From: Patescibacteria group bacterium
GTDB lineage: Bacteria; Patescibacteriota; Patescibacteriia; Magasanikbacterales; UBA922
Reading direction: 5' to 3'
DNA: 64,000 nt
NCBI GenBank assembly: GCA_018823045.1
Contig: JAHJIX010000002.1
Coordinates: forward strand, 128,846-192,845
Shown here piece after piece: positions 9,981 to 58,105 of the stretch. Each line of letters opens with the position of its first letter. Within the stretch, counting starts at the first letter, position 1. The translations under genes were made by a program, and so were the position numbers. The notes under the pieces are model-generated. The model worked only from the letters and a program-made list of their open reading frames with translations, was not told the DNA's origin and searched no databases.

Positions 9981-10250
9981 TCTTACTTTTTTTGAACTGT
10001 GGAAAAAATAAAAAAGTCCCCGGAATAATCAATCTTATTTTTTTCGCCATCACAGCAAAGAAAAAATGATAGATTACACATGGGGACAAGTTTGCACTCA
10101 ATAAGCACAATGTGGGAATGGGCAAAAACCACATATACTCTTAGAGTGCGTTTTGGCCTGGGTGGGGCCGTTTCATTTTTCCACAAGAAGGTCAAATGAG
10201 ATTACACTATACCTTTTTTATTTATTTTAGTCAACTATTTTTCTATATAT

Positions 10251-10276
10251 AAAAAACGAGCACTTGCTCGTTTTTT
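10251..10276. terminator. Intrinsic terminator 3' of polA (AAAAAACGAGCA-CTTG-CTCGTTTTTT)
   Basis: A perfect 8-bp stem with flanking A and T runs, immediately after the polA stop. Confidence 0.8.
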
Positions 10277-10278
10277 CA

Positions 10279-12951
10279 TTATTTCAATTCACCCCAATCT
10301 TTTCCAATATGTGCTTCTACTTTTATTGGCACATCCATATCAACAACACACTCCATTTCTTTTTCTACCAAACGTGCAATTTTTTCTGCTAACGACTCTT
10401 TCACCTCAAGCACTATTTCATCGTGCACCTGTAATAACATTTTTACTTTATCCCCAAATGGCGCAATCTTTTTGTACACAGCAATCATAGCCAACTTCAT
10501 CATATCTGCAGCCGTTCCCTGCACGGGCATATTAATTGCCATACGCTCACCAGAAGTCCTAATCTGTCTGTTTTTTGCATGTAATTCTGGCACATACCTT
10601 CGTCGCCCCAAGAGCGTTTCAACATAACCACTTTCTTTTGCTTCTTCAAGCACAGTGTCTAAATATGTCTTTACTCCAGAAAAACCAGCAAAATAGGCAT
10701 CAATAAATTCTTGAGATTGCACTACTGAAAGACCTGTACGCGCAGACAAGCCATATGCTCCCATACCGTAAAGTACACCAAAATTAATTTCTTTTGCAGA
10801 GCGACGCAATTCTGGTGTAACATCGGCGATACCTACCCCATGAATAATTGCTGCGGTTGCCGTGTGTATATCCTCATCTCGATGAAAAATTTCTAACATT
10901 TTTTTATCTTTAGACAAAGAAGCCACAACACGAAGTTCGATTTGCGAATAATCCGCTGCAATAAATACTGTTCCTGAGGCAGCAACAAATGCCTTTCTAA
11001 TTTTTTTCCCCGCTTCAGTGCGGATTGGAATATTTTGTAAATTTGGATCTGAACTTGATAAACGCCCAGTAGCGGTCACCGACTGATTAAATGTTGTGTG
11101 TATTCTGCCTGTTTTTTTATTTACCAAAGTGGGTAACACATCGATATATGTATTTTGTAATTTTGACAACTCTCTAAATGTTTCAATATATTCAATGATT
11201 TCATGCTCCCCCCTTAATTTTTCTAACTCAGCGGCAGCAGTTGAATACCCTGTTTTTCCTTTTTTTATTCCACGAGTTGGCAAAGCTAATTCTACAAATA
11301 AAATTTCACGCAACTGTACAGATGAGGCCACATTAAACTCTTTACCGGCAAGCTGATAAATGTTTTGTGTTAATTGATCAAGTTGCTTATGAATCTCAAC
11401 CGACATATCTGATAAATATGGGGCGTCAATTGAAATACCATGCAACTCCATTTGTGCAAGTACTGGAATCAAAGCCATTTCTACCTCTTGAAATAAAGAT
11501 TCTTGTTTTGTTCTTTTTAATGCTGTTTGATAATGATGATACAGCTCAAATACATATTGATATTGTTTTGCAAGTCCTTCAATATCAGCACCAAAGAGTG
11601 TTTGCTGTTTTTGTTCAACTATCTGAATATCAAGCTCTCGCAAAATAAGAGCAGGCAAATCATGAGCACGACTGTTTGCTTTTACAATATATGACGCAAT
11701 CATAATATCAAATATGTGTGTAGGTGCTTGTTGTTTTTCTTGCAAAATAACTTTCACCAATTCTTTTACATTATGCCCTACCACAGATATATTTGAGTTA
11801 GTCAGATGCGCAAAAACGCGTGCGCGATCCGCTGGTTTACAATAAGAAAAATCAAGATAATGCATCCCACTTTTTTCAAAAACAAAAATCATACCCTCAA
11901 TGTAACCACTCACAACTCCCCCATCAACAACTTCTTTACAAACAAAGACAGTCTCTTGTTCTAATAAAGATAAAAATATTTCGACATTTTCTGCACTCAC
12001 TCGTGACACTGTTTTTTCTATGTGCTCTTTGCGCACTTTCTTTTCACCCGGTAAACGCTTTATAAGAGAAAAAAACTCAAAACGCCGAAACGCTTCTTCT
12101 AGTTTTTTATAATTAATTACAGTGCTTACTGTTTTTTCAATATCAAAATTCAATGAAGGAACAAATTGATCAATCTTAGCAAGTGTATAACTCATTTCTG
12201 CGCTTTCTTTGCCATCAATAATTTTTTCTCTCATTTTTTTACTCAGCACAGAAACAAGTATTGAAGCCTCATCTTGTATTTGTCTATATATTTCTCCCAC
12301 GGTCTTTGCATGATCTAATATTATTTTTGCCGTTTTGTCTCCCACCCCAACAATACCAGGAATATTATCTGAGCTATCCCCACGTAAGGCCTTATATGTC
12401 ACCAACAATTCTGGTCCAAAACCAAGCACTTCTTTAACTTTTTTAGGATCAAATAACAAAAAATTGCTCATTCCTGTTTTTAATAGATATACATTTGTTT
12501 GTATACTCACCAACTGCAAGAGATCTTTATCTCCCGTAACAATAATACACTGAGTATCAGAATACTTTTCTTCAATTTCCTTCACAATAGTTCCAATAAC
12601 ATCATCAGCTTCGTATCCCTTTTTGCTATATATAACAACTCCAGCATCTTTCAACACTTCTTGAATAAGTGGAATTTGATTATACAAGTCGTCATCAGCT
12701 TTTTCTCGTGTGGCCTTATATTCAGTATAGACTTCATTTCGAAATGTTCCACCACCAACATCAAAACTCACCACAAAGTGTGTAGGTTCTATATCACTCA
12801 ATACTTTAAGTAATATAGAAAAAAAACCATACACAGCATTCACCATCAGCCCATCTTCAGTAGTAAATGCAGGAATAGCATGATACGCACGATGAATTAA
12901 TGCATGTCCATCAACAATAACAAATTTTTTCGAAAAAGAATGTTCTTTCAT
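10279..12951 (-). CDS. polA: DNA polymerase I
   Basis: Has the 5'-3' exonuclease N-terminus (FVIVDGHALIHRAYHA) and polymerase motifs RRSAKEINFGVLYGMGAYGLS and LLQVHDEIVLEV. The start is taken at the ATG at 12951, downstream of the PBP terminator hairpin. Confidence 0.95.
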   Translation of the reverse strand: MKEHSFSKKFVIVDGHALIHRAYHAIPAFTTEDGLMVNAVYGFFSILLKVLSDIEPTHFVVSFDVGGGTFRNEVYTEYKATREKADDDLYNQIPLIQEVLKDAGVVIYSKKGYEADDVIGTIVKEIEEKYSDTQCIIVTGDKDLLQLVSIQTNVYLLKTGMSNFLLFDPKKVKEVLGFGPELLVTYKALRGDSSDNIPGIVGVGDKTAKIILDHAKTVGEIYRQIQDEASILVSVLSKKMREKIIDGKESAEMSYTLAKIDQFVPSLNFDIEKTVSTVINYKKLEEAFRRFEFFSLIKRLPGEKKVRKEHIEKTVSRVSAENVEIFLSLLEQETVFVCKEVVDGGVVSGYIEGMIFVFEKSGMHYLDFSYCKPADRARVFAHLTNSNISVVGHNVKELVKVILQEKQQAPTHIFDIMIASYIVKANSRAHDLPALILRELDIQIVEQKQQTLFGADIEGLAKQYQYVFELYHHYQTALKRTKQESLFQEVEMALIPVLAQMELHGISIDAPYLSDMSVEIHKQLDQLTQNIYQLAGKEFNVASSVQLREILFVELALPTRGIKKGKTGYSTAAAELEKLRGEHEIIEYIETFRELSKLQNTYIDVLPTLVNKKTGRIHTTFNQSVTATGRLSSSDPNLQNIPIRTEAGKKIRKAFVAASGTVFIAADYSQIELRVVASLSKDKKMLEIFHRDEDIHTATAAIIHGVGIADVTPELRRSAKEINFGVLYGMGAYGLSARTGLSVVQSQEFIDAYFAGFSGVKTYLDTVLEEAKESGYVETLLGRRRYVPELHAKNRQIRTSGERMAINMPVQGTAADMMKLAMIAVYKKIAPFGDKVKMLLQVHDEIVLEVKESLAEKIARLVEKEMECVVDMDVPIKVEAHIGKDWGELK

Positions 12952-13024: not shown

Positions 13025-16000
13025 TTATTCAACTTCTGAATCAGACTCTTTAGCAGGATCAACTAATAATACCATACTATCTTTTACAATACTTCCATTT
13101 TTTGTTGTTAATACTCCTTCTAATCGCCAACGTCCAATTTCTAGTTCACTTACTGCAATACTAATCGCTTGAGAAATGTTTTCTGCATCATATAACTCTA
13201 TTTCTACATCATCTTTTTTTGCTGTTACAGTTACATGATTTACCTCTTCTGGTTTATAAATTGAAGCATGCACATTTATCGGCAAATGATTTATTTCAAC
13301 ACTTTGTGCATTAAAATTCCAAATAAGTGCAGATTCCTCTCCGTCTTGTGGCGCAAAAACAAATGGAATTATTTCTTCAAGCACATTACCAACATCATCT
13401 TTAATTATTACGGTTAAATTATGCTGCCCTGTAGACAAAGTACTAGCCTCATAATGTAAATTAAACGGATGCGCTGTTTCTGTTCCAACAAGTCTTTCGT
13501 CAATATAATACTTCACTTCTGCTACTCCACGTGGTGCAGTAAAACGCATGTCTGTATCAATCACAGAAGAAAAAATTGCGCTCCCTGGTGAGGGATACAC
13601 GGCTTCCACTGTCGGAATAAAGGACAGTGCATATGCATCATCCACACCAGCAGGAGGTTCCTCAAAAGAAATTTCCCAATCAGGATTTTCTTCTTTTCTC
13701 CGCTCAATCCAACTTTGAATTGCCGCTTCCCAATTTTGATATTGTGAATCTTGTTCTGGATTTTCTGGGAGATCTCCTTGTGGATCAGATTTTGTAATAT
13801 AATGTAAAATTGAATGTGCTTGTGTATATGTTCGCTCAACAATATATTTTTCAGGGGTTGAGCTCGTTGCGATATTACCGGTTACTTTGTTCACACGTAA
13901 AGTAATAGCCCCACCTTCTGATCCCATCAAAACTGGCTTTTGCGTATTTGGCATAACCATCGTATCAAATGACTGCACAGGCGTGCCTTCGAGGGCGTTT
14001 CTCATAAAATTATTCCAAATTGGGGCAGCCACCCGACTACCACCATATCCACGTGTCATTGGTGTATTGTCTGTATTCCCTACCCATACACCAGCAACTA
14101 AACTTGGCGTATACCCAACGGTCCAGGCATCAACATAATAATTGGTTGTTCCTGTTTTAACAGCCACTGGACGACCTGGTAATGTGAGAACACCTCCAGC
14201 ACCAAATAAATATGCACGAGATGCATCATCACTTAAAACATCTGAAATCATTGCTGCAGTATTTTTTTGAATCACACGCTCTTTTTTTGATTCTTTCCAC
14301 TCCTGCAAAACAGTCCCATCTGCGTCTTCTACTCGTAAAATACTAACAGGAGCCACTCGCTCTCCTCCGTTTGCAAACACACAAAATGCAGCAACATGTT
14401 CAAGCAGGGTAACTTCTCCACCACCCAACACAAGAGACAAACCAAAGTCTCCATCACTCAAGGTGGTATATCCAAGTTTTTCAGCAAACTCAATACCAAA
14501 TTTTTCTCCAATTAAATAAAGCGCTTTTACCGCAGGAATATTTAAAGATCCTTGCAGCGCTTGACGAATGGTTACTGGCCCACGCTCTTTAAAATCATAA
14601 TTTGTTGGTTCATATGAACGAGCACCTACACCAAAATTAGTCACAACATCAAATAAAATAGTCTGAGGAGTGTATCCAATTTCAAATGCAGCTGCATACA
14701 CAATCGGCTTAAAAGAAGAACCTGGCTGCCTACGCCCTTGTGTTGCCACATTAAATTGTCCTGAAATATCTTGATCAAAAAAATCTCTTGAACCAACCAA
14801 AGACATGATGTGTCCATTGTCTGGGTTCATCGCAACTAAACTCGTATTGTCAGCATTAGCATCGGCAAAACGCTTTTCACTTTCTTCAGCTACGGCAACT
14901 TCAGCTTTTTCTTGCATATTCCAATCAAGCGTAGTTATTACACGAAGTCCCCCTGCCCCCACTTGTTGTTCACCATATTCTTGGACTAATTGTTCTTTTA
15001 CATACAATACAAAATGCGGCGCATGAATATTTGAAACATTTTGCACAACATGCAATTCTTCTGCTTGTGCACTATTTTTTTCTTCTTCAGAAATATATCC
15101 TTCTGCAAACAAACGCCTCAAAACAAAATCTCGACGCTGTTTAAACAACTCAGGATTATTTAAAAAGATAGTTGGTGCCTGAGGAAGACCAGCAAGTGCG
15201 GCCCCCTCTGAAAGAGTTAAGTCTCCGACGTCTTTGCCAAAATAACTTTGGGCTGCAGATTGAATACCATAGTTTGTTGATCCATATGGAATTTCATTAA
15301 AATAAATTTGTAAAATTTGATCTTTCGTATACGCACGCTCTAATTTAATCGCTAAAATAAATTCTTTTACTTTTCTCATGACACTCCGCTCATTTGTCAA
15401 AATGGCATTTTTTACTAACTGCTGTGTGAGTGTTGACGTTCCTTTTACTTTCCAATCACGAAATGGAGCCATAACAAATGCCCGAATAATACTCAACGGT
15501 CGCACACCCCAATGTTCATAAAATACTTTGTCTTCGGTTGCTATAACCCCCTGTACCACAAAATCTGGGATTTCTTCTAGCTCAACTAAAGTTCTTTTTT
15601 CATCAGAATAAATTTCATATAATAAATGTTCTCCCGTTCTATCATAAATTTTTGTACTCTGAGCAATTTGTCGATCAGTTAATTTATTTGGATCAGGTAA
15701 ATCACGACTCCCGAAGGCAAAAATAATGGTTACCATCACAAAACCAACGACCCCTAAAATAATACTTGACCACCAAAAAAGTTTCCACAAACTTTTTCCC
15801 ATCTGTGTATATCTTTTCCACCCCCAACGGAGTAACCTCAATGGAAATAATAATACAAAAACAAGCATGACTCCAAGACTTTTAAGCAAAATTGTACTTA
15901 TCCGACGCCAAGCCGGTCTGTCTTCCGATTCACCCGCATGTTCATATCTTGGTTGTTTTTTCTCTAAAAATTGTGTATCCTTTTTTACGTACCCATACGA

Positions 16001-16048
16001 TCGCTTCTGCCGATTGTCCATAGATGGATGTTTATAGTATTTAAACAA
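13025..16048 (-). CDS. Class A penicillin-binding protein (glycosyltransferase GT51 plus transpeptidase) with a long C-terminal extension
   Basis: N-terminal TM helix. GT51 motifs ATEDKVFYEHWGV and RAYTKDQILQIYFNEIPYG are present, with transpeptidase motifs STFKP and KTGT. The extra C-terminal region is about 350 aa. Confidence 0.9.
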   Translation of the reverse strand: MFKYYKHPSMDNRQKRSYGYVKKDTQFLEKKQPRYEHAGESEDRPAWRRISTILLKSLGVMLVFVLLFPLRLLRWGWKRYTQMGKSLWKLFWWSSIILGVVGFVMVTIIFAFGSRDLPDPNKLTDRQIAQSTKIYDRTGEHLLYEIYSDEKRTLVELEEIPDFVVQGVIATEDKVFYEHWGVRPLSIIRAFVMAPFRDWKVKGTSTLTQQLVKNAILTNERSVMRKVKEFILAIKLERAYTKDQILQIYFNEIPYGSTNYGIQSAAQSYFGKDVGDLTLSEGAALAGLPQAPTIFLNNPELFKQRRDFVLRRLFAEGYISEEEKNSAQAEELHVVQNVSNIHAPHFVLYVKEQLVQEYGEQQVGAGGLRVITTLDWNMQEKAEVAVAEESEKRFADANADNTSLVAMNPDNGHIMSLVGSRDFFDQDISGQFNVATQGRRQPGSSFKPIVYAAAFEIGYTPQTILFDVVTNFGVGARSYEPTNYDFKERGPVTIRQALQGSLNIPAVKALYLIGEKFGIEFAEKLGYTTLSDGDFGLSLVLGGGEVTLLEHVAAFCVFANGGERVAPVSILRVEDADGTVLQEWKESKKERVIQKNTAAMISDVLSDDASRAYLFGAGGVLTLPGRPVAVKTGTTNYYVDAWTVGYTPSLVAGVWVGNTDNTPMTRGYGGSRVAAPIWNNFMRNALEGTPVQSFDTMVMPNTQKPVLMGSEGGAITLRVNKVTGNIATSSTPEKYIVERTYTQAHSILHYITKSDPQGDLPENPEQDSQYQNWEAAIQSWIERRKEENPDWEISFEEPPAGVDDAYALSFIPTVEAVYPSPGSAIFSSVIDTDMRFTAPRGVAEVKYYIDERLVGTETAHPFNLHYEASTLSTGQHNLTVIIKDDVGNVLEEIIPFVFAPQDGEESALIWNFNAQSVEINHLPINVHASIYKPEEVNHVTVTAKKDDVEIELYDAENISQAISIAVSELEIGRWRLEGVLTTKNGSIVKDSMVLLVDPAKESDSEVE

Positions 16049-16064
16049 AGTTCCCCCTCAGTAT

Positions 16065-16751
16065 TTGAAGGAGTCTCACTATAGAGAATATCCTATAATT
16101 AACAAAATTTCAAGCTTCTATATTTTTTCCCATATGTATATCCCCTACACTTCGACACTCATTCGCCAACAGACACTTCATCATGCAGGACTTAGTGCAT
16201 TTATTATCATAACCCTTCTAGGGTCCCTTGGTCGTCCACAAATAACACAAACCGTAGAAATTTCTTATCAAGAGGTATTCCAAAAACAGCAATTTCCAAT
16301 AGCTGAAATTATGAATGCCTCAACCAGTCACACATTTTTTGCAACCGCCTATTCAAGTGACTTTTTTCAAACTGATGCAACACCATTTATTCCTGCAAAT
16401 GGGATTGACTACCGCAATATGATGAAAAAACAAGGGTACGTAGCAGCAATTGCAACAAATGATTTACCTCTTGGCACCCAAATTGCAATTCCAGTACAAG
16501 AATTACCCGATTTATTCACACAATCAACTCAAATTCCATCTGAACGTATTATTCTTGATGATAAAAAAACAGAGGTAATCCTTTTTACCGTTACAGATAG
16601 AATGAACGCAAAATTTACAGGAAAATCGCGTATAGATATTTATGTCGCTATTTCTCTAGAAGACGGAACCATTGACCAAAGAAGTTCTCGTAGTGTGGCG
16701 CGATTATTCGGAAGTAAGCGTCTAACAGCAGCGATAGTACAATTTAATTAA
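16065..16751 (+). CDS. 3D-domain (MltA-like, lytic transglycosylase-related) secreted protein
   Basis: Contains FFATAYS...GYVAAIATNDLPLGTQIAIP...FTVTDRMNAKFTGKSRIDIYV, matching the conserved TAY...VAVD...LPLGT...DTGGAI...IDI pattern of 3D domains. The true start is uncertain. Confidence 0.55.
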   Translation: MKESHYREYPIINKISSFYIFSHMYIPYTSTLIRQQTLHHAGLSAFIIITLLGSLGRPQITQTVEISYQEVFQKQQFPIAEIMNASTSHTFFATAYSSDFFQTDATPFIPANGIDYRNMMKKQGYVAAIATNDLPLGTQIAIPVQELPDLFTQSTQIPSERIILDDKKTEVILFTVTDRMNAKFTGKSRIDIYVAISLEDGTIDQRSSRSVARLFGSKRLTAAIVQFN

Positions 16752-16870
16752 ATCCACCAAAACAATATACTAAAACATTCTATGTAATACAAAATGTTTT
16801 ATTTCATAAAAACAAAAAAGTTTTACTCTTGAAAAATTTTTGATTTTAAGATATAATTGCACACGGTAAT

Positions 16871-16945
<75 letters not shown>

Positions 16946-16948
16946 CAT

Positions 16949-16982
16949 AAACACAGGATTATCTATCCTGTGTTTATTTTCG
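16949..16982. terminator. Intrinsic terminator hairpin (AAACACAGGAT/ATCCTGTGTTT followed by ATTTT)
   Basis: Perfect 11-bp inverted repeat immediately 3' of tRNA-Cys. It overlaps the dnaN stop and could act bidirectionally. Confidence 0.7.
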
Positions 16983-18101
16983 CACAGGCATGACAATATA
17001 GAGATATGTCTTACTGTTTTTTGGTCGAATAATACAAGGAGTGTCAGCGCTGTTCATTTCAAACGTCAATTCTTCATCGTCCATATGCTGAATCCCTTCT
17101 AGCACATAACGAAAATTTAACAGTATTGAATTAGTATCCCCACTAGCGACAACATCAATCCGAGATTCGTGTTCTCCTGTCTGACTTCCCATAGAAGAAA
17201 TAGCAAGTGTATTTGGTACAGTATCAACAGACACAGATATGGCATTTACCCCACCAGTTACAAATAAACTCGCACGTTTAATACTACTGCTGAACATATC
17301 AGCGGAAACAATGGCTTTTGTATTAAAGGTCTGTGGAATAATTTGTGTATAATCAGGATAAACTCCATCAATCATACGAGATATTAGCTCATACTGACCA
17401 TAACGAACAACTAATTGCCCCTCACTCACCCATAAACGAACAGCACTTTCTTTTTCCCCCTTAGATAGAGAATATCCAATTAAACGAACAATTTCAAATG
17501 CTGTTTTTGCTGGCATAATAGCTTCAATACTCTCCCCTTCTTTTTCTACGAGTAAAAAATACTCAGCTAAACGATACGAATCAGTCGTAGCAAAGTATAC
17601 ACCCATTTTTTCTCGTACAAAAAATCCACAATAAACCCCTGATAATTCTGGTCTAATCTCATTTTTTGCTGCGGCAAATACAACTTTAGATAGAGCATTT
17701 TTAAGTTCTTCAGCAGGAATAACATATCCCGTATGCTCAATGACTTCAGGAATTACAGGAAATTCATCCGCAGGTATTCCTTTAATTTTTGTACTAGAGT
17801 GTCCACTAGTAATTTGTAATTCATTTCCTGTTTGAGTAATTTCAATTTGATCATCCGGCAATAAATTTACATAATCTGTCATCATTTTTCCTGGGATAGT
17901 AAAAGTTCCTGCTTGCTCTACTTTTGCGCGTAAATGTGTTTTAACAGACATTTCTAAATTTGTAGTAATTAATGTTACTCCAGACTCTGTTGCTTCAACT
18001 AATATATGACTTAGAATAGGAAGATGGCCTGGTTTACTTGTAATGCCTGCAACCATTTGAAGTGCCTGTATAAGATTTTCTTTCGTACAAATAAATTTCA
18101 T
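16974..18101 (-). CDS. dnaN: DNA polymerase III beta subunit (sliding clamp)
   Basis: N-terminus MKFICTKENLIQALQMVAGITSKPGHLPILSHILVEA is typical of DnaN. Length is about 375 aa. Confidence 0.9.
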   Translation of the reverse strand: MKFICTKENLIQALQMVAGITSKPGHLPILSHILVEATESGVTLITTNLEMSVKTHLRAKVEQAGTFTIPGKMMTDYVNLLPDDQIEITQTGNELQITSGHSSTKIKGIPADEFPVIPEVIEHTGYVIPAEELKNALSKVVFAAAKNEIRPELSGVYCGFFVREKMGVYFATTDSYRLAEYFLLVEKEGESIEAIMPAKTAFEIVRLIGYSLSKGEKESAVRLWVSEGQLVVRYGQYELISRMIDGVYPDYTQIIPQTFNTKAIVSADMFSSSIKRASLFVTGGVNAISVSVDTVPNTLAISSMGSQTGEHESRIDVVASGDTNSILLNFRYVLEGIQHMDDEELTFEMNSADTPCIIRPKNSKTYLYIVMPVRK

Positions 18102-18305
18102 ATGCACAGTTCCATTTAAAAGAAGTGTTTAATATATATATAAGTATAATAGTAATAGTAATAAGAGTTGTTGATAGCGGGGATAAGTACCTAAATTTGC
18201 TGAGTGAACCTGTTTTTTTACTATTATTTTTGTGAACAACTGTTGTACAATGAAGTGTGTAAGGTGGTGACTCTTTATGCACAGTTTTGGGAGGTGTGAA
18301 AATTT

Positions 18306-18314
18306 TGTGGATAA
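18306..18314 (-). promoter_or_regulatory. DnaA box (perfect TTATCCACA on the minus strand)
   Basis: The plus strand reads TGTGGATAA. It lies in the AT-rich dnaN-dnaA intergenic region. Confidence 0.6.
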
Positions 18315-18320
18315 GTATTG

Positions 18321-18361
18321 TTTTGTCCGGAACTTATATTCTGTTTTGTCCCCGAACTTAT
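18321..18361. repeat. Two direct repeats TTTTGTCC(G/CC)GAACTTAT, 23 bp apart
   Basis: Copies at 18321-18337 and 18344-18361 are identical apart from a G to CC change. They lie in the dnaN-dnaA intergenic region beside the DnaA box. Confidence 0.5.
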
Positions 18362-18438
18362 GCACGTGAATAAAATTGGGTATATCTTTTGCACAACGTG
18401 TGTGCGCTTTCTTTTTTGAGTAGTATATTCTTTACAAA

Positions 18439-19815
18439 CTAGCGTCCTTGTGCATAAATTTTTTGCTTAATAAGTTCAATATCTTGTTTAATTTTCAAAT
18501 CAAGATCTTTTTGCTTTACAATTTTATTGTGTGCATGTATGGCTGTTGTGTGATCACGTCCACCTAATTCTTGTCCTATATTTGGAAACGACAAATCAAG
18601 TTCTGTGCGTAATAAATACATAGCAATTTGTCTTGGAAGGGATACTCGCTTTTCTCTGCTTTTTCCAATAATATCTTGATTAGTAATATCAAAAAATCTC
18701 ATAACCTCTTGAATTATTTCTCGAGGGGTGGTTGAACGTTTGGTGTTATTTGTTTCGAGAGTCTCTAAGATAGAGGACACACCTTCTTTATTTAAGGGGG
18801 TATTTTTGAGTTGATGAAAAGCTGAAATTTTGTTTAAGGCCCCTTCTAGTTCTCGGATGTTACTTTGAACTTGTCGTGCAATCATCTGTAGGATGTCTTC
18901 CTTTATGTCTAATTTTTTTTCTTGGCATTTTGCCTGGAGAATGGCCACTCTTGTTTCAAGGTCTGGTGCAGAAATATCAGCAATCATTCCCCACTCAAAA
19001 CGACTACGTAATCGGTCTTCAAGAGAAAGGATTGCTTTTGGAGGACGATCACTGGTCATGATAACCTGCTTCCCTTGTTGATGAAGTTCATTAAATGTAT
19101 GAAAAAATTCTTCTTGTGTTTGTTCTTTTCCTCCAATAAATTGAATATCATCAATTAATAGAAGGTCAACGTTGCGGTATCGATCTTTAAATTCTTTGGC
19201 TCGACCTTCTTTAACAGACATGACAAACTCATTAGTAAATTTTTCTGAACTGACATATAAGATTTTTGCCTGGGGATTTTTAGCTAACATGCTGTGCCCC
19301 ACTGCTTGCAATAGGTGGGTTTTTCCAAGACCAACATCACCATATATAAAGAGTGGGTTGTATGCTTCACCTGGTCGATCAGCAACAGCTTGTGATGCAG
19401 CATGTGCTAATTCATTTTGTTTTCCAACAATAAATGTGTCAAAAACATATTTTGGTTGAAGCCCAAATTGACTAGCGTGTTGCATTGTGTTCGTATACAT
19501 GGGGGTTTTTGCTGTAGAGACCGTTGGTTGTGATTTGGTAAAGCACTCCTGTTCAGCAATATTTTTCATGTTCTCTACCTTATATTCCATTTTTTTTACT
19601 GGTTTACCTGTAATTCTCTCAATTGTCTTTACTAAATCAGAGTTATATTTTTTTTCAAGCCAGCTTTTTGTAAATGTATTTGGAACACAAACAATAATAC
19701 GTCCTTCTTGATATTCTGCAATGCCAGTGCTACGAAACCATGTGGTGAAATTTGCTTTAGATAGTTTCAATTCAAATTCAGCAAGAACAGCCTGCCATAT
19801 CTCGTAGTTTGTCAT
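18439..19815 (-). CDS. dnaA: Chromosomal replication initiator DnaA
   Basis: Walker A GDVGLGKTHLL and the AAA+ and C-terminal DNA-binding regions (RELEGALN, IGKSREKRV...RQIAMYL) are present. Confidence 0.95.
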   Translation of the reverse strand: MTNYEIWQAVLAEFELKLSKANFTTWFRSTGIAEYQEGRIIVCVPNTFTKSWLEKKYNSDLVKTIERITGKPVKKMEYKVENMKNIAEQECFTKSQPTVSTAKTPMYTNTMQHASQFGLQPKYVFDTFIVGKQNELAHAASQAVADRPGEAYNPLFIYGDVGLGKTHLLQAVGHSMLAKNPQAKILYVSSEKFTNEFVMSVKEGRAKEFKDRYRNVDLLLIDDIQFIGGKEQTQEEFFHTFNELHQQGKQVIMTSDRPPKAILSLEDRLRSRFEWGMIADISAPDLETRVAILQAKCQEKKLDIKEDILQMIARQVQSNIRELEGALNKISAFHQLKNTPLNKEGVSSILETLETNNTKRSTTPREIIQEVMRFFDITNQDIIGKSREKRVSLPRQIAMYLLRTELDLSFPNIGQELGGRDHTTAIHAHNKIVKQKDLDLKIKQDIELIKQKIYAQGR

Positions 19816-20126
19816 AGGGAGAGGGATTAATAATAGAAAAAATTGTGGAAAAGGTGTGAGTTATCTGTTTCTTTTTATTAAGTATACACATTTTATCATA
19901 GCTTTAGAAAATGAAACATGGCTATAATAAGGTAAAAAGTTATTAACATGTGGATAAACTGTGCACATTGTGGATAAGTTTGAAAAAAAATAGAATGAGA
20001 CAAGGGTTTTTTGTGGGGTGATCTTTTTTTAAAAGTTGTACACAGGTTTTATTTCTTGGTGAAGTGGTGTACTCTTGACTTTTTTTATGTATTGCTTTAT
20101 AATACGACCCGTTAACTATACGAAAT
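19816..20126. promoter_or_regulatory. Candidate oriC / dnaA-rpmH intergenic region with DnaA boxes
   Basis: Two perfect TGTGGATAA (TTATCCACA) boxes lie at 19949-19957 and 19969-19977, with degenerate boxes (TGTGGAAAA, TTGTGGGG) and AT-rich tracts nearby. An rpmH promoter is present: -35 TTGACT at 20076-20081, a 16-nt spacer, and -10 TATAAT at 20098-20103. Confidence 0.65.
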
Positions 20127-49146: not shown

Positions 49147-49791
49147 ATGGAGATGCAAATTAGTTGCTTCGGCAGCAGTGAAAAAGCCCCAAATGCACTT
49201 CCCGCACCACCAAGACTTAGGACCCTTGTCAGTCTGAGTTGTGGAATTTCTTCACAAGAATTTTTGCAAACAATTCAGAATTTGGGTGTGCAACAAATCT
49301 GGGACATTCGTTTGACTCCGACATATGTGTCACGTTTCAAAAGACCAGATTACGGAAGTGATCAACAATTGTTTAGGGAAATGTGTACGCAAATGTCGGT
49401 TGAATATAGGCATGTTCCTATATTTGCTCCGACACAAGAAATGCGCCATGCATTTAATCGTGCAACAGAAAATTCTGATACTCGTTTAGGTGCATGGACA
49501 AGTTACCTTGAAGATTTAGAAGTCTTGATGCAAGAAAGGAGGGCTATTACTTTAAGTCAAGAAGGGCTTAATCAAGCGCCAGAAGTCGTTGCTGCTGTTT
49601 GTTCTTGTCACTATCATGATGATTGTCACAGGAGCTATGTCACAGCAATGTTACATCACTACATACAAGGAGTATACATACATGTTGTAGACCCTAATAA
49701 GGAAAAACGTCGCCCAAAGTATCCACGAAGATGGCGTCAGCATGATTTCCCAATGGTGGGACTGCTGGCAAATGCACCACAAAAGAGCTGA
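49147..49791 (+). CDS. DUF488 family protein (island gene A)
   Basis: The pattern (signature left column; letters in brackets are in the DUF488 consensus but not this ORF): I-S-C-F-G-S-S ... S-S-Q-E-F-L ... L-G-V-Q-Q-I-W-D-I-R ... P-(S)-(R) ... Y ... V-E-Y-R-H ... V-C-S-C-H ... D-D-C-H-R matches my recollection of the DUF488 signature (I-x-T-x-G-x-S...EEF...L...GI..L.DVR..P.S...Y.H...CxCAE...CHR). A Shine-Dalgarno sequence AGGAGA lies 8 nt upstream. GC appears higher than in the flanks. Confidence 0.55.
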   Translation: MEMQISCFGSSEKAPNALPAPPRLRTLVSLSCGISSQEFLQTIQNLGVQQIWDIRLTPTYVSRFKRPDYGSDQQLFREMCTQMSVEYRHVPIFAPTQEMRHAFNRATENSDTRLGAWTSYLEDLEVLMQERRAITLSQEGLNQAPEVVAAVCSCHYHDDCHRSYVTAMLHHYIQGVYIHVVDPNKEKRRPKYPRRWRQHDFPMVGLLANAPQKS

Positions 49792-49802
49792 GGAGAATAC
49801 TC

Positions 49803-50504
49803 TTGCTAGTTGACACGTACGCTTTGATTTTATCTGAGACAATAATTGGTGGTGATCATTTTTGTACCAATTGTCTCATTAAAGAGGGTGAAAACTATCG
49901 GCAAATTCGGCTTAGAAGTGCTGGTAATAATCATCTAGCATATCACATGCTGCCTTCACAGGCACGGAGGCACTGGAAAATGGGGCAAGTTATAATACTT
50001 CCTCCATTTAAGAAGCCAAGTAATTGGTTTTGGCGAGGAACTCATCCAGAAGATGTGATTGTAGAACCAAGAAAAATAAAGGCTGTAAATCTTCATAGAG
50101 ACCCTGATGGGGATCGTTTTCTTGGATTAATAGAGCCATTTACATACCAAAGTCTTGAGGCTCTATATCCAGAACACATAAAAGATGGAGGAAGTATATA
50201 TTACCCAGCTGATGCGATTTTAGAGCGATCTGTTGGGTATGTCCGACTCCCATCTGTTTCTATACGTAGAAACGATTGGGGAAAACTGCGAGCGCGCGTA
50301 GAGATAACTTCTCCTCGTCGATCACTATCAAGGATATATGATTTTTCTATCGTTGGTAAAGATCTGCGCAATAGGGTTGAGTCAGGCGACATTCGTATAG
50401 GGAGCACATTTGAGAATGTGCTGTGTCGGTTGAGTCTTGCTGGACCGTATGCACAACAAAGAAACCAGTGTTACGTAATGCTTAGCCACATTCATGGCGT
50501 CTAG
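49803..50504 (+). CDS. Hypothetical protein (island gene B), probable TTG start
   Basis: A 233-aa ORF with GAGGAGAA 6 nt upstream of a TTG. It is probably co-transcribed with gene A. No family was recognised. Confidence 0.4.
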   Translation: MLVDTYALILSETIIGGDHFCTNCLIKEGENYRQIRLRSAGNNHLAYHMLPSQARRHWKMGQVIILPPFKKPSNWFWRGTHPEDVIVEPRKIKAVNLHRDPDGDRFLGLIEPFTYQSLEALYPEHIKDGGSIYYPADAILERSVGYVRLPSVSIRRNDWGKLRARVEITSPRRSLSRIYDFSIVGKDLRNRVESGDIRIGSTFENVLCRLSLAGPYAQQRNQCYVMLSHIHGV

Positions 50505-50523
50505 TGTAATGTGATACTGACCG

Positions 50524-50566
50524 AAAAAAGCTACCCTTGTGATCTGGAGGATTACAAGGGTTTTTT
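50524..50566 (+). terminator. Intrinsic terminator after island gene B (ACCCTTGT...ACAAGGGT followed by T6)
   Basis: An 8-bp stem with a 13-nt loop, followed by TTTTTT. Confidence 0.7.
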
Positions 50567-50597
50567 AATATAAAAGTACTCTATCAACAGGCTCTCA

Positions 50598-50626
50598 TTG
50601 ACAGGAGTTATTTTTTCATATATAGT
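50598..50626 (+). promoter_or_regulatory. Sigma-70-like promoter for island gene C (TTGACA, 17-nt spacer, TATAGT)
   Basis: Consensus -35 at 50598-50603, a 17-nt spacer, and -10 TATAGT at 50621-50626. Confidence 0.5.
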
Positions 50627-50697
50627 AATTAGTTAGTAGAGAGCATATAATGATGTATGCTGTCTTAAAAACGCCCGTAACCTACAACTAAACCGAA

Positions 50698-51366
50698 ATG
50701 TCCTTGGAGGGGAAAATGGAAGCTATCCTTTATGTATTTGCGAGCGGGTTGCTCCAACAAAGCGAAGGTGTTCTCTCCTTTTTTGGGGGTGGAACATTCG
50801 TTTCTGTCGATGATGTCTGTGCTCACTTGTTTTCCTTAGGAAGACAAATGGGTAAAAAGATAAATACTAATTTTTTCAAAATTACAAAGGGTTCTTTGTT
50901 GCTCTTGGATGTGGATAATCAAGAAGCCGGATTTATTTGCCCTCGTTTGAGGGAGAGTAAATTAGAGTTTTTTTCTTTTTTGGAATTGTTTAATTGGTGG
51001 GGTAGTTTGAGAAATAGATTTGAGTTCGTCATAAGAGATTATGGTGGGCTTAATTCTCATTTTACCTATATTCTCGATAGAGAGGGAAGAGGTGAAATAT
51101 TTTCAAACACCCATATACAGTATAAGGGGCTTGCAAGGGGAATAGGAGAAAGGACGGTATGTATTCTTTCTCCAAATTCTCAATTACATCAGCATGCGGA
51201 GGTCGATGACACGCCGCGTCGTCTTGACCCACCAGAGGGAGAGCTTAATATAGGTATAAGAATCTCTCTTTGGCTTATTAAGCCCGGACAGGGCTTAAGG
51301 GTGGGGGAGAGGATAGTTCTCCGCAATGTTGGCGGGGAATTGCAAGAGGAGCGTTTTGCTTTGTAA
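50698..51366 (+). CDS. Hypothetical protein (island gene C)
   Basis: A 222-aa ORF with its own promoter and a downstream terminator at 51368-51399. No family was recognised. Confidence 0.4.
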   Translation: MSLEGKMEAILYVFASGLLQQSEGVLSFFGGGTFVSVDDVCAHLFSLGRQMGKKINTNFFKITKGSLLLLDVDNQEAGFICPRLRESKLEFFSFLELFNWWGSLRNRFEFVIRDYGGLNSHFTYILDREGRGEIFSNTHIQYKGLARGIGERTVCILSPNSQLHQHAEVDDTPRRLDPPEGELNIGIRISLWLIKPGQGLRVGERIVLRNVGGELQEERFAL

Positions 51367-53327: not shown

Positions 53328-53358
53328 AAAAAAATCCCCAGAAGGGGATTTTTTTATA
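53328..53358. terminator. Bidirectional intrinsic terminator (AATCCCC-AGAA-GGGGATT flanked by A7 and T7)
   Basis: Lies between convergent ftsH and the 53354..54349 gene. Confidence 0.8.
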
Positions 53359-54349
53359 TACTGCGTTGTAAAGGTATTTCTTCCGTTCGTGCCATGCTTA
53401 TGGCAGTTAATGGTCTTGTGTCACTTGTTTGATCTACTAATTTTATTTGTATTGAACCAAACTGATCTTTTGTCAATTTAAATGTTGAAATTTGATTAGG
53501 TAAGTCTATTGCTAATATTGGGGGATTTATGTCGTGAGTAGGAGCTGTATTAAAAAAGAAATCTTTTCCTTTTTCATCTGTTAGTTTTATACTATGTATA
53601 AATTTTCCCTCAGTACCTCGGTATCGCCGAGCAACATCTTGTAGAGATGCATCTTGCAGACCATAACCATGAGCAATTAGTTGATCCATGAGTATCGGAT
53701 TTTCTTCAATAAATCTTCGTTGGGCTGCTTCTTTAAGTGATATTGCTTTAAGTTCTTGTTTGCCATTCTCTTTTGTTATGACTTTGTGTAATCCAAATCC
53801 TGAATTTTTTGGATCTCCTGTGAAAGAAACAGGTGTCGGTGTATCTGTTTCTTTGTAAAAAAGAGCTGCTTCGCCTGTTTCAGGATTTTTACTGTGTGCT
53901 AGTGTTAAATATCTTTTTGTATATGTTCCCTTTTCAAATAATGCATCAATTTCATCTGCTGTCGCTACAATAAATCCATCTTCTATCATTGCTTCTGTTC
54001 GTTCACGATGTCCTGCATCACCTTTTTCTCCCATTTCTATTAATCGTTTTTTTCCATCTTTTTGTAACTCTACTTTATAATGTTCTGTTGTATAAAGAGT
54101 TGAATCTAAAAAAGTAGGTACTTCTTCAGTATTTTTATTGGTATAATATAAAAATGTTTCTCCGTTGTTTAAAGTGATAACAGTTACATACGAAGAATAA
54201 ATATCAATAGACCCTTTCGTTTTGTAAAGATCAATTGTTTCTTGTGGAATTGGGAGATAACCACCTTCCTTTAACTGTGTTATTTCTTGAGATAAATTTT
54301 CTGATTCAGTGGGCGAAAAATTTGGGGGATACAATTCTACTGCTAGCAT
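53354..54349 (-). CDS. Hypothetical cytoplasmic protein made of about three copies of an unrecognised ~80-aa repeat (paralog 1)
   Basis: No signal peptide. The modules contain ...G(Y/F)...Y.T...L...GE..LFYKETD.P... and are shared with the adjacent 486-aa protein. Confidence 0.5.
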   Translation of the reverse strand: MLAVELYPPNFSPTESENLSQEITQLKEGGYLPIPQETIDLYKTKGSIDIYSSYVTVITLNNGETFLYYTNKNTEEVPTFLDSTLYTTEHYKVELQKDGKKRLIEMGEKGDAGHRERTEAMIEDGFIVATADEIDALFEKGTYTKRYLTLAHSKNPETGEAALFYKETDTPTPVSFTGDPKNSGFGLHKVITKENGKQELKAISLKEAAQRRFIEENPILMDQLIAHGYGLQDASLQDVARRYRGTEGKFIHSIKLTDEKGKDFFFNTAPTHDINPPILAIDLPNQISTFKLTKDQFGSIQIKLVDQTSDTRPLTAISMARTEEIPLQRSI

Positions 54350-54444
54350 AAAGAAAAATTAAATACAAGAAAAAACTTATGTGTATAGTATGTAATTATT
54401 ATATGTATAGTAACAAGAATAATTACTTTTGCCAATAGAGCGTT

Positions 54445-55905
54445 TTATGAGCTTGTGTGTGGAATGAGTTCTTGTTTCCCATCGATATTCTGTATTCGAT
54501 AAATATCACATTCAAAATCTTGATAATTTGTACCATCTAAAAAATCAATTTCTTCTGGATTATCAGTGTTTTTATAAAAAAGAAGACTTCTGTTATTTGT
54601 GGTATCAAGAAGTGTTACTTTGGTCAAATATGGTTTATTGAAACTTTTTGATGTAAGACGTTGATGTAGTGTGGGAGTATCTGTTAAAATAAAATTATGA
54701 TCAAGCATCAATTGCAATCTTTGCTCATGTGCATTTTGTTTTATTTCTTTATTTTCTCCCATTATATCAACAGGAATTAAATGGTAGGGGGCAAGATTAT
54801 CCATTTCTCGAAAGATCCCTTTGTGTGCTACCATCTTATTATCTTCTCGTCTTAATACTTTAGCTTCTTTTCTGCTTTCTTTTTCACTCTGTATCTGTTC
54901 TGCTCGTGTGGGAGGGATTACTTTGAAAAATTGGATAAACGATGAGATTGTTTTTTCTGGATATTTAGGAATATCAGGATTATCAGCATCTGTACCTTTG
55001 AGAAATATGTAGGTTTGTTCTGTTGTTGGGTCAATCATGCGGACAGTGGTCACGAATGTATATCCTACAAATTGACCACCTTGCTTTATCATTTGATTAA
55101 ACGTATTTACTGGAATAGAAATATATCCTTGAGCATGCATTTCATTAATAATATGGCTGATTTCACTTAGTTCTTCTTTTTCCCAACCATGTTCTGTTTG
55201 ATGAACGGGGATTGTGTAAGTTGCTGGGTCATCATCTGTTGGCTTTTCAATAAGGTATGTTTTGATCAAATAATTATCTTCATCGAGGGTATCGTTTGAA
55301 TTTAAAAAGTTAGGTAGTTCAGGTGCTCTTTCATTTCTTTTTGTAAAAAATAGATGTGGTTTTTTGATTTCAACAATGGTCAAGTATGTTGTATTTGGGA
55401 GAGAACCAGCTGTCCATTTATTTATAATGTGTTGTGTCGTTATGTTCCACCCTTGTGATTCAAATTTTTTATTTATTTCTTGTGCAGCTGGCTCCAACAT
55501 TTCTTCTGTGAGAAGAATCATATTTCTTTTAAGTCCTAACTCATCTTCAGGCTTAATAATATAATGATTGGTAGTATATGAAATATGTTGTGAGAGGTCA
55601 GTTGTATCTAGAAAATTTGGTGTATTTGATAACTCTGTTCCTTGTTTTACAAAAACCATTTTTGGTTCTTCTATTATGATAGTAGTAATATATGCTATAT
55701 CTGGTGGGTTTTCTGTAAGCCATTTATTGACTGTGTTTTGTGTAGTCATTCTCCATCCTTCTTTTGTAAATTTTTTTATCAATTCTTTCTTTATTTCAAG
55801 TTCAGTCGGTTCCTTCTCAGCTGGTTCAAATACTTCTTTTGGAAGCGGTGGCATAGCTGGAGGAAGTTCTGATTTTGGTGTCGGACGAAGTTCAGATATA
55901 GACAT
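54445..55905 (-). CDS. Hypothetical cytoplasmic protein made of about four copies of the same ~80-aa repeat (paralog 2)
   Basis: Contains the pair KEGWRMTTQNTVNKWLTENPPDIAYITTIIIEEPKMVFVKQGTELSNTPNFLDTTD and SQGWNITTQHIINKWTAGSLPNTTYLTIVEIKKPHLFFTKRNERAPELPNFLNSND. A C-terminal copy has LLFYKNTDNPEEIDFLDGT. The N-terminal 40 aa are Pro/Glu-rich. Confidence 0.5.
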   Translation of the reverse strand: MSISELRPTPKSELPPAMPPLPKEVFEPAEKEPTELEIKKELIKKFTKEGWRMTTQNTVNKWLTENPPDIAYITTIIIEEPKMVFVKQGTELSNTPNFLDTTDLSQHISYTTNHYIIKPEDELGLKRNMILLTEEMLEPAAQEINKKFESQGWNITTQHIINKWTAGSLPNTTYLTIVEIKKPHLFFTKRNERAPELPNFLNSNDTLDEDNYLIKTYLIEKPTDDDPATYTIPVHQTEHGWEKEELSEISHIINEMHAQGYISIPVNTFNQMIKQGGQFVGYTFVTTVRMIDPTTEQTYIFLKGTDADNPDIPKYPEKTISSFIQFFKVIPPTRAEQIQSEKESRKEAKVLRREDNKMVAHKGIFREMDNLAPYHLIPVDIMGENKEIKQNAHEQRLQLMLDHNFILTDTPTLHQRLTSKSFNKPYLTKVTLLDTTNNRSLLFYKNTDNPEEIDFLDGTNYQDFECDIYRIQNIDGKQELIPHTSS

Positions 55906-55920
55906 AAAAAATATTAAAAT

Positions 55921-56558
55921 CTAAGAAGAAGCACTGCTGTATGTATTTACTGCATAATTCCAAATAAAGCGTGCTATGATTATACTTATCGTAGCAAGAA
56001 TATCAGCTATTGCCAAGAGTGGCCATGAAATTTGGCCGAGTAGCATTTTGGTTGAGACCGTTGTAATAAATGCTAGTGGAAAGGTAAAGGTATATACGAT
56101 ACGTACAATATCAGTATACATATCAGTTGGGTAGCGTGCAAGATTATGAAAACGCCAGGCAATGGCATTTGTGCTCCATCCTTCAATGGACTTAAAATTA
56201 ATTGTTTTAGTTGAAAGGGTGATGCTGTATAAAATAATTTGTCCGCAAGTAAAGGTGAAAAGAAAAAAGAGTAGTGTCATAAACGGGCGTTCAATTGTTT
56301 GGTTTGCGATTCCATATGTGATAATTGCAATGCCCAGACCATTTGATACGGTCATGCGTAAAAAGGTGAGTATAATGTAATAGCTGACAATACCAACTAG
56401 GCTGTATGTCCCAACCTGTTCACCTGCACCATAGATACTCATCCATAAATAAACCCTGAAAATGTGATGACATGACTAACCAGCAGTAGGCCTAGGTTGA
56501 GGCGATACTGCATAAATTTGCTGAGTGTATTTGTATAGACAATCCAATATTTTTTCAT
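55921..56558 (-). pseudogene. ABC-2-type transporter permease, frameshifted (two overlapping frames)
   Basis: Frame 1 (56439..56558) encodes MKKYWIVYTNTLSKFMQYRLNLGLLLVSHVITFSGFIYG and then a stop. This resembles the M-x-K-Y-x...L-x-Y-R-x-N N-terminus of ABC-2 permeases. The remaining 173 aa (55921..56442), with five or six TM helices, continue in the -1 frame. No cognate ATPase gene is adjacent. Confidence 0.45.
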
Positions 56559-56592: not shown

Positions 56593-56627
56593 AAAAAACC
56601 ATCTTAGAGATTAAGATGGTTTTTTGG
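56593..56627. terminator. Intrinsic terminator (AAAAAACCATCTTA-GAGATT-AAGATGGTTTTTT)
   Basis: A 10-bp stem located 3' of the PP2C-like gene. Confidence 0.75.
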
Positions 56628-56638
56628 TATATTTGTTT

Positions 56639-58105
56639 TTAATTAGCTACTTCTTCTAGTAGATCACTATCAAGTAATTCTGCATCTGCTTCTTCTTCTT
56701 CTTCTTCTTCTTCAATAAGGTCTGTTGTATCGAGGGTCATGATTTTATCACCTGTATGTACATATACAATAAGAGACAAATTATCTACCTTTGCAAATGG
56801 GACTGTAGGGTTTCCTTCTTGTACTGATTTTACTCGTTCGAGGACCAATTGCATAATTCTGTGGCGAATAAGATTTGGATCAAGGTGACCATTTTGTTCT
56901 TGCTCAATGTCAGAGATGATTTTTTGAATTTCTCGTGAGAGTAGGTTATCTTCTGGTCCATCTGAACAGGTAATAACTACGTCACCTGCTTCAAGAGTTC
57001 CAAAATCAATAGGTTTTGCCATCTCAGCTTGTTGTTCTGGCGTCTTTATAAGGTTAAGGACTTGAGGGGGCCACTCTTCTTGTGGTTTGTTTTGAACAAA
57101 TCTTATTAATTTTTCAGGGATTTTATGTTCTGCCGCTAGTGTTTTAAGATCAAGCTGCCCCATGAGTATCTGACCTACCTCTTTTCTTTTGTCTAAATAA
57201 TCAGGATTATTATACAGTTCTTCTTCTTGTGTAAAGTCGACTGTAGTCAGATTTCCATCTTGAATTTTTTCAATATTTTCTCGATTACTTGCACGAGAAA
57301 TATAAATATTTCCATCACCTACAAGATATCCTGTAGCTTCTGCATTAGGGCCAATTTCAAGACCTGAATAAGTAGTCAGGTCTGCTATAGTATCTTCACC
57401 AAATGGATTGAAGCTGTCTTTACCAATTAGACCTACACGGTTTGCGCGTATTTGGGTTTCTTTTGATAATTCCTGAACACCCATTAAAATACCTTCTTGT
57501 ACAGTACCACCATTTTTTATGGAAGTGTCAACAGCTTGTGCAATAACTGATGAAGCATTTTCTCCATTTCGAGAAGTAGATACTCCATCTGCTATGGAAA
57601 ACACTACACGGCCGTCTGGAGCTTGTGTAATAACAAGGCTATCTTGTTGTTTTTCTTTACCGCCGTCGTGAAGGTCTGCTGCACATGTACCACCATCAAT
57701 TTCAGCTGTTTCTATAATAAGTCGACCCTCAGGGTATTTTTCTGCAAAAAGTGGTGTATCAAGTGATACTATAGTTGCCCCTTCACGTAATTCTCTTTTT
57801 GATATTTCTGGAATTTCTATTAGATCTTCATCTTCTAGCATGCCTATACCATCATCTTCTAATGTTGTGAGAGCAGTGTCAATTTCTGTTGCAGTAAATT
57901 CAGGTGCTTTAGCAATTTTAGCCCCTAGTTCTTCTGTAGGAGGGAGGTCGGTGGTTGTTTCAAATCCTTTTCCAAGTGCTTGGTCTATATCTGTATCCCA
58001 TTGTGTTTCTGCTGTTATGGGTGTTTTAACCACTTTTGGTGAAACAAATCCCTCAGTCTGTTGTAGGCCTAATGGTAGTGGTTTTTTTCTTCCTTCTGAA
58101 AACAT
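56639..58105 (-). CDS. PP2C (PPM) family Ser/Thr phosphatase-like protein with a long N-terminal region and an acidic poly-Glu tail
   Basis: PPM-like motifs FSIADGVSTSRNGENASSVIAQAV, GDVVITCSDGPEDNLLS and DNLSLIVYV. The C-terminus EEEEEEEEADAELLDSDLLEEVAN is encoded by a (CTT)8 tract. Confidence 0.6.
   Translation of the reverse strand: MFSEGRKKPLPLGLQQTEGFVSPKVVKTPITAETQWDTDIDQALGKGFETTTDLPPTEELGAKIAKAPEFTATEIDTALTTLEDDGIGMLEDEDLIEIPEISKRELREGATIVSLDTPLFAEKYPEGRLIIETAEIDGGTCAADLHDGGKEKQQDSLVITQAPDGRVVFSIADGVSTSRNGENASSVIAQAVDTSIKNGGTVQEGILMGVQELSKETQIRANRVGLIGKDSFNPFGEDTIADLTTYSGLEIGPNAEATGYLVGDGNIYISRASNRENIEKIQDGNLTTVDFTQEEELYNNPDYLDKRKEVGQILMGQLDLKTLAAEHKIPEKLIRFVQNKPQEEWPPQVLNLIKTPEQQAEMAKPIDFGTLEAGDVVITCSDGPEDNLLSREIQKIISDIEQEQNGHLDPNLIRHRIMQLVLERVKSVQEGNPTVPFAKVDNLSLIVYVHTGDKIMTLDTTDLIEEEEEEEEADAELLDSDLLEEVAN
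56689..56712. repeat. (CTT)8 trinucleotide microsatellite encoding poly-Glu
   Basis: Eight perfect CTT units on the plus strand, within the 3' end of the PP2C-like gene. Confidence 0.8.

Follow-up and report, generated by a model that had tools for sequence, protein, structure and literature searches.

Two adjacent genes of a Patescibacteria group bacterium, here called A and B, lie on the minus strand of a 64,000-nucleotide stretch of DNA (contig JAHJIX010000002.1, positions 128,846 to 192,845; hereafter the window), and they encode proteins built from tandem copies of one apparently undescribed module. The bacterium is uncultured, and relatives matched through its FtsH place it in the Magasanikbacteria. 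An initial annotation, made from the letters alone, had reported minus-strand open reading frames (ORFs) of 331 and 486 residues here, and both were found where it had placed them; in assembly GCA_018824665.1 their products are annotated as hypothetical proteins. The two genes, the modules that were detected in them with hidden Markov models (HMMs) and the associated signals are as follows, with pLDDT denoting the predicted local distance difference test score.

53354 to 54349, minus strand: gene A (KKG22_04120), 331 residues, an ORF with an identical NCBI protein; short leader, A1, A2 and a divergent C-terminal region.
54445 to 55905, minus strand: gene B (KKG22_04125), 486 residues, an ORF with an identical NCBI protein; four HMM domains.
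55501 to 55797, minus strand: module B1 (residues 37-135); leave-one-out E 2.2e-11, AlphaFold2 pLDDT 91.
55195 to 55500, minus strand: module B2 (residues 136-237); z 25 against B1, leave-one-out E 4.4e-11, 306-nt DNA repeat.
54901 to 55182, minus strand: module B3 (residues 242-335); leave-one-out E 2e-7, z 6.9 against A1 and 5.5 against B4.
54448 to 54735, minus strand: module B4 (residues 391-486); leave-one-out E 3.3e-8, z 14 against A2.
54020 to 54316, minus strand: module A1 (residues 12-110); leave-one-out E 1e-8, E 1.2e-9 with an HMM built from B only.
53726 to 54013, minus strand: module A2 (residues 113-208); leave-one-out E 3.5e-7, element order as in the other modules.
53423 to 53725, minus strand: A3 (residues 209-309), a probable but unproven degenerate copy; not significant, of the right length, with the motif pattern in a MAFFT alignment.
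54407 to 54435, minus strand: promoter-like site 5' of gene A, TTGGCA-17-TACTAT with TG; a consensus match only.
53328 to 53353, either strand: bidirectional intrinsic terminator common to gene A and the convergent ftsH, ATCCCC-TTCT-GGGGAT between A and T runs, as read from the sequence.

A and B are real genes, since their frames of 331 and 486 codons stay open in DNA of ~33 % GC, their composition falls inside the range of the genome and is thus native-like, and they hold a confidently folding domain. B opens with a Pro-rich acidic leader (residues 1-36), which is followed by B1 to B3, a charged linker (residues 336-390) and B4; the 95-nt spacer between B and A contains no terminator. Both proteins are acidic (pI 5.2-5.3), with no cysteine in A and one in B. 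As had been claimed for them, neither has a signal peptide or a transmembrane helix: the highest 19-residue Kyte-Doolittle mean was 0.9, the N-termini are hydrophilic and Pro-rich rather than hydrophobic, and no Sec or Tat signal, lipobox, membrane anchor or pilin-type leader was found in either. Since the stop-to-stop frames extend only 3 and 5 codons further upstream, there is no room for a hidden signal peptide, and A and B are predicted to be soluble and cytoplasmic.

To define the repeat, seven candidate modules were cut from the two proteins at the residues listed above, all pairs were scored by Smith-Waterman alignment against 300 shuffles, and leave-one-out HMMs, hhalign and a MAFFT alignment were applied to the set. 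Results showed a connected network of significant pairs (z-scores of 25 for B1-B2, 14 for B4-A2, 8.4 for both B1-A1 and B4-A1, 6.9 for B3-A1 and 5.5 for B3-B4), and the leave-one-out HMMs recovered six modules (B1, B2, B3, B4, A1 and A2) at E 2e-11 to 3.5e-7. HMMs built from B only matched A1 and A2, the reverse search from A to B worked as well, and blastp aligned A with B at E 6e-10. The B1/B2 duplication can still be seen in the DNA, as a 68-nt stretch of 72 % identity recurring 306 nt (102 codons) apart. Given the network of z-scores, the leave-one-out and cross-protein HMMs and this DNA-level duplication, the repeat is real and far beyond chance. The six copies share only 15-32 % identity, and the module was not matched by any further ORF in the window.

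These results agree with the initial annotation in its central claim, that A and B are neighbouring paralogues within which one module has been duplicated, and the internal repeats it had quoted were recovered in B (KEGWRMTTQNTVNKWL... and SQGWNITTQHIINKW...). Its details fared unevenly. The module measures ~95-102 residues rather than ~80, and the proposed FYK(N/E)TD(N/T)P block is present but well conserved only in B4 (LLFYKNTDNP) and A2 (ALFYKETDTP). Four copies in B were confirmed, whereas of the three proposed for A only A1 and A2 were significant. For A3, all z-scores were below 0.3 and the leave-one-out E was 1.3; hhalign placed it in register with the other copies over its N-terminal half (P 0.025), MAFFT aligned its motifs HGY, KFIHSIKL, DFFFN and FKLTKDQFGSIQIK with theirs, and its region had pLDDT < 50 in a model of full-length A. 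A3 is thus probably a degenerate third copy beside the two proven ones. Tandem paralogy with internal duplication is itself a familiar evolutionary pattern.

The fold of the module was modelled with AlphaFold2 on B1, using the seven repeat sequences as the alignment. The model was confident (pLDDT 91, predicted template modelling score 0.81), with elements in the order H-E-H-E-E-h-E-E (H2-12, E16-18, H20-28, E36-42, E47-53, h61-64, E74-83 and E91-98). In a separate model of full-length A, A1 and A2 showed the same order at pLDDT 60-80; the mean over that model was 52.7, and it leaves A3 and the packing between modules unsettled. The module is therefore modelled as an alpha/beta domain of ~100 residues, consisting of a helix, a short strand, a helix, a beta-hairpin, a conserved P-x-FLD loop and a second beta-hairpin, with the two helices predicted to pack in two layers on the hairpin sheet. 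Conserved positions comprise a Gly-aromatic pair after helix 1, aliphatic and aromatic residues in the strands, a Pro at the hairpin turn and the P-x-FLD loop. No column is invariant or nearly so among the seven copies, and only one Pro reaches at least 90 % among 10 sequences.

No described family accounted for the module, which bears out the view that it is unrecognised. The best Pfam matches of A and B had E 0.018-0.07, all under the gathering score, and a scan of each module separately gave no recurrent weak family and no match to an Imm, SUKH or SuFu model. NCBIfam gave only E >= 0.02, PADLOC nothing, PHROGs E >= 0.007 to unrelated families, and a profile search of PDB sequences E >= 0.17. 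With a fold match taken as a Foldseek E <= 1e-3 or a template modelling (TM) score >= 0.5 against PDB and BFVD, none was found, the only neighbours being weak ones of immunoglobulin (Ig) or FN3 type at TM 0.1-0.4; bead-string matches of the full-length A model were judged meaningless and set aside. The module is thus undescribed and, on the model, may be a new fold. Since it has no invariant column, conserves Gly, aromatic, aliphatic and Pro residues and matches no family or fold, it is probably non-enzymatic, with a conservation pattern that fits a structural scaffold rather than an active site.

To place the genes among relatives, the junction between ftsH and rluB, in which A and B lie, was compared across loci. 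The order ftsH-> <-rluB <-CNNM <-AdoHcyase <-Na/Ca exchanger <-PfkB is kept in L004, L005 and L006 (in the last without CNNM), with FtsH 84 % identical to that of the window in L004, the closest relative, 73 % in L005 and 70 % in L006. The contents of the slot are as follows.

Window: gap 4.8 kb; A, B, an ABC-2 remnant and a PP2C-like gene.
L004: gap 2.3 kb; three ORFs, one of them a 178-residue module homologue.
L005: gap 2.7 kb; four minus-strand ORFs, including marginal 286- and 248-residue homologues.
L006: gap 1.5 kb; two pentapeptide-repeat paralogues, no module protein.
L008: gap ~0.1 kb; empty.
L004 4754 to 5290, minus strand: 178 residues, one module, E 1.2e-6.
L005 10244 to 11104, minus strand: 286 residues, E 0.15, marginal.
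L005 11076 to 11822, minus strand: 248 residues, E 0.28, marginal.

The slot is a variable islet, ranging from ~0.1 to 4.8 kb among relatives. The last three proteins listed were the top three matches of the module HMM among 10,761 six-frame ORFs of 80 loci, and all three are minus-strand ORFs that lie in the ftsH-rluB gap of L004 or L005, abutting ftsH. The L005 pair are paralogues of each other (E 1.4e-8) and align over the full length of the module (hhalign P 0.009 and 0.0025). An iterative HMM search with lax inclusion (E 0.5) drifted and was repeated with strict inclusion. Three further matches were rejected: L023 12671-12958 is antisense to a membrane-protein gene, L006 13514-13681 is out of frame within rluB, and the match in L096 is a threonyl-tRNA synthetase. 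Since diverged homologues occupy the same slot in L004 and L005, the module family is at least genus-deep.

Module counts differ sharply over this range, with two to three plus four in the window, one in L004, one plus one in L005 and none found in L006 and L008. The L004 homologue is ~30-35 % identical over ~50 residues, as against 68-84 % for neighbouring housekeeping proteins. The family thus evolves by domain duplication or loss together with sequence divergence, far faster than its neighbours, which supports its earlier description as rapidly evolving. Two further observations were made on these islets. A short acidic, Pro-rich N-terminal leader that is neither Sec nor Tat opens the module proteins and other islet ORFs (MLAVELYPPNFSP, MSISELRPTPKSELPPAMPPLP, MAFDTIPPPQERYLKSPPETP and MPELRDYNNPLPEQQPLPPEP), in the window at 53354-55905, in L004 at 4754-5290 and 6148-6696 and in L005 at 10244-11822. 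The pentapeptide-repeat paralogues of L006 (12014-13254, plus strand; 155 and 201 residues) are 48 % identical.

The constant place beside ftsH in three species, with a bidirectional terminator in common, and the native-like base composition could suggest a clade-specific structural or regulatory scaffold, e.g., an adaptor of FtsH, whose sequences would have diverged because constraint was relaxed and not through conflict. We consider this unlikely. Since the L008 slot is empty and that of L006 is filled by the unrelated pentapeptide-repeat proteins, the family is dispensable; A and B are convergent with ftsH and not co-transcribed with it, and a partner of a conserved machine would hardly be expected to vary so much in copy number.

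The same rapid divergence and flux in domain number, the Pro-rich acidic leader common to A, B, the L004 and L005 homologues and other islet ORFs, and the beads-on-a-string architecture of the model would also be expected of proteins that interact with a host or partner cell, i.e., modular adhesins or effectors exported non-classically by way of the leader and diverging in an arms race. The bacterium that carries A and B is presumably episymbiotic. However, neither protein has the Sec or Tat signal, lipobox, transmembrane anchor or pilin-type leader by which a secreted or surface repeat protein would be recognised, no secretion genes are adjacent, and the two-layer alpha/beta domain differs from the all-beta Ig/FN3 modules typical of adhesins, to which Foldseek gave TM < 0.4. 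A role at the cell surface is therefore doubtful.

The initial annotation had further proposed that A and B act together with an upstream ABC-2 permease and a PP2C-like phosphatase. The elements concerned are as follows.

55921 to 56558, minus strand: ABC2_membrane_6 remnant, comprising a 39-residue ORF (56439-56558) and a 173-residue ORF (55921-56442) with an ATGA overlap.
56593 to 56625, minus strand: intrinsic terminator after the PP2C-like gene, a 14-bp stem plus T run; the upstream bound of the unit formed by the ABC-2 remnant, B and A.
56639 to 58105, minus strand: PP2C-like gene, 488 residues, with a sub-threshold PP2C N-terminal motif at residues 146-203 and a long unmatched remainder.

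All of these lie on the same strand as A and B, with the PP2C-like gene immediately upstream, and since the ABC-2 remnant ends only 15 nt 5' of B the two are probably co-transcribed. Such an arrangement would suit A and B as accessory or substrate-binding components of the permease under regulation by the phosphatase. However, the permease gene is split and degenerate at its N-terminus, its Pfam match (E 2.3e-16) takes in no more than positions 92-229 of the 229 in the profile, and no ATPase partner was found near it. Repair of the supposed frameshift was tried and abandoned, as the conceptual fusion gave no longer Pfam match. Since the strong terminator at 56593-56625 lies between them, the PP2C-like gene is a separate transcription unit from the rest. 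Its assignment is weak (a 50-residue motif under the curated cut-offs), and no relative was found in PDB; the protein ends in a poly-Glu acidic tail (EEEEEEEEADAELLDSDLLEE). The ABC-2 remnant has a GC content at third codon positions (GC3) of 0.34, against a window mean of 0.245, and its sequence is identical in three assemblies.

Comparison with relatives also spoke against the link, since the module homologues of L004 and L005 adjoin neither gene and no relative of either was found anywhere in those two islets; the PP2C-like protein, hyp222 and hyp233 likewise showed no similarity to the other ORFs of the L004 and L005 islets. Neither the conserved co-occurrence with an intact permease and ATPase that marks an ABC-2 operon nor the co-transcription and conserved linkage of a PP2C-regulated, partner-switching-like module was observed. 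Synteny therefore largely refutes joint action with the permease and phosphatase, and a transport function of this kind is improbable in the extreme.

Beyond these loci, A and B were each searched against 5.8 billion proteins by a word index, and nothing but the two proteins themselves came back; a profile search run exhaustively over 1.84 billion representatives gave A and B again and one spurious match, P0003. This 413-residue perfect tandem repeat with a unit of ~58 residues, probably translated satellite DNA, was rejected as a false positive arising from six summed weak matches. A search with a 10-sequence module alignment gave nothing at E <= 10 and missed even A and B, both of them entries of the database searched, so that it is no evidence of absence. 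No phage relatives of A or B were found by tblastn against INPHARED or in scans of IMG/VR, for which A and B themselves were used, the module alignment being too divergent for the pattern scan. When metagenomes were scanned for relatives by way of FtsH, none came closer than L004; one locus, L084, matched the same two proteins as L005 with identical scores and appears to be the same genome.

Such extreme restriction, with A and B alone among 1.84 billion representatives, a pseudogene-like ABC-2 remnant next door and a degenerate-looking A3, would be consistent with young, lineage-specific ORFs that have no function and are drifting neutrally to decay, as the ABC-2 remnant is. However, the frames are long and intact in AT-rich DNA, and six copies keep one confidently foldable domain at only 15-32 % identity, which points to long-term purifying selection on the fold. 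Homologues are also kept in the slot of species whose FtsH is only 73-84 % identical. We regard decay as very improbable.

The DNA around A and B, over the rest of the window, belongs to the core chromosome and includes dnaA, polA, PBP1 and gyrA. The dnaA gene (18439-19815, minus strand) lies at the cumulative GC-skew minimum and sign change (~16-18 kb), and the 16000-20000 region is likely the replication origin; a tRNA-Cys gene is found at 16871-16945. On the minus strand at 3900-9980, a gene encodes a giant protein of beta-propeller type, 2026 residues long, in which six LVIVD repeats were recognised (Pfam E 8.5e-65). Across ftsH from A and B, at 49147-51366 on the plus strand, a DUF488 gene and two unannotatable ORFs (233 and 222 residues; GC 0.42, GC3 0.30-0.39) stand between an S1-domain gene and ftsH, whereas nothing separates the S1 gene from ftsH in certain relatives (e.g., L010); this stretch appears to be a second variable islet and may have been acquired.

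Considering the architecture, predicted fold and setting of A and B together, we propose as a working hypothesis that they are cytoplasmic, non-enzymatic, polyvalent binders that work like polyimmunity proteins, a reading to which we would give a probability of roughly 0.3. Each domain would be a scaffold for binding, in which the hydrophobic core is conserved and the surfaces vary; strung together, several of them would let one protein bind a number of other proteins. The nearest analogy is with proteins of polymorphic-toxin conflicts that neutralise several incoming toxins without an adjacent toxin gene. Polyimmunity loci encode tandem small alpha+beta immunity domains in each polypeptide, in two to three genes of the same orientation with short spacers; there is no toxin gene in the operon, and the content of the locus varies among close relatives (Zhang et al., 2012; PMC3482391). 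A and B resemble these loci, e.g., those of multi-SUKH type, in repeating one small alpha+beta domain in tandem within predicted cytoplasmic proteins, as two paralogues of the same orientation separated by 95 nt. The result is a short, toxin-free, same-strand array of a repeated small domain (four in B, two to three in A), in which the conserved positions are mostly hydrophobic or aromatic. The content of the ftsH-rluB islet also differs between close relatives, with gaps of 4.8, 2.3, 2.7, 1.5 and ~0.1 kb.

Several observations weigh against an immunity-like role. The module is related neither in sequence nor in fold to SUKH, SuFu or any Imm family, and no extended polyimmunity locus is on record for Patescibacteria (PMC3482391). 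No toxin-like gene was found within +/-10 kb of A and B, and neither a toxin, a secretion system nor a flanking recombinase occurs near them; they lie in core chromosome near dnaA. The family was tied to no toxin domain, including beside the L004 and L005 homologues, which are the only ones found and a very small sample. The three assemblies with the A/B locus are 100 % identical and so yield no signal from microdiversity or from the ratio of nonsynonymous to synonymous substitution rates. In addition, any small non-enzymatic domain fits a binding role almost by default. The missing toxin neighbours would lower the chance that A and B are immunity proteins in the strict sense, and not the chance that they work like them.

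If the module is a new fold, or a conflict or immunity domain, A and B would provide a defined and experimentally tractable family within the large unknown fraction of Patescibacteria, and the ftsH-rluB junction would stand out within Magasanikbacteria as a small hot-spot where genes turn over. The strongest form of this proposal, a new alpha/beta fold in a family that is confined to Magasanikbacteria, whose polyvalent proteins neutralise or bind others, and that represents a new immunity-like or conflict class of the Candidate Phyla Radiation and shuffles its domains at an ftsH hot-spot, is conceivable but unlikely to hold in full. For the present the importance of A and B is modest, as they are one of tens of thousands of lineage-restricted families and offer no functional handle. 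They do illustrate that synteny can overturn a verdict of no homologue among billions of proteins, since positional homologues may score under database-wide significance.

Among other known systems, repeat adhesins (Big, FN3 and SiiE-type) share with A and B a bead-on-a-string series of ~100-residue modules and were the only weak Foldseek neighbours. However, their modules are all-beta and Ig-like, and the proteins are secreted and form much longer arrays, whereas A and B have no export signal. An orphan family is to be expected in this phylum, since 54,343 lineage-specific clusters without annotation, of which 45,788 are species-level, have been described from Patescibacteria (2022, PMC9132574). 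A and B resemble those clusters in being unannotated and restricted to a species or genus, but they differ from bare orphan ORFs in having a confidently modelled domain, a six- to seven-fold repeat of it and a syntenic slot in which the family can be traced.

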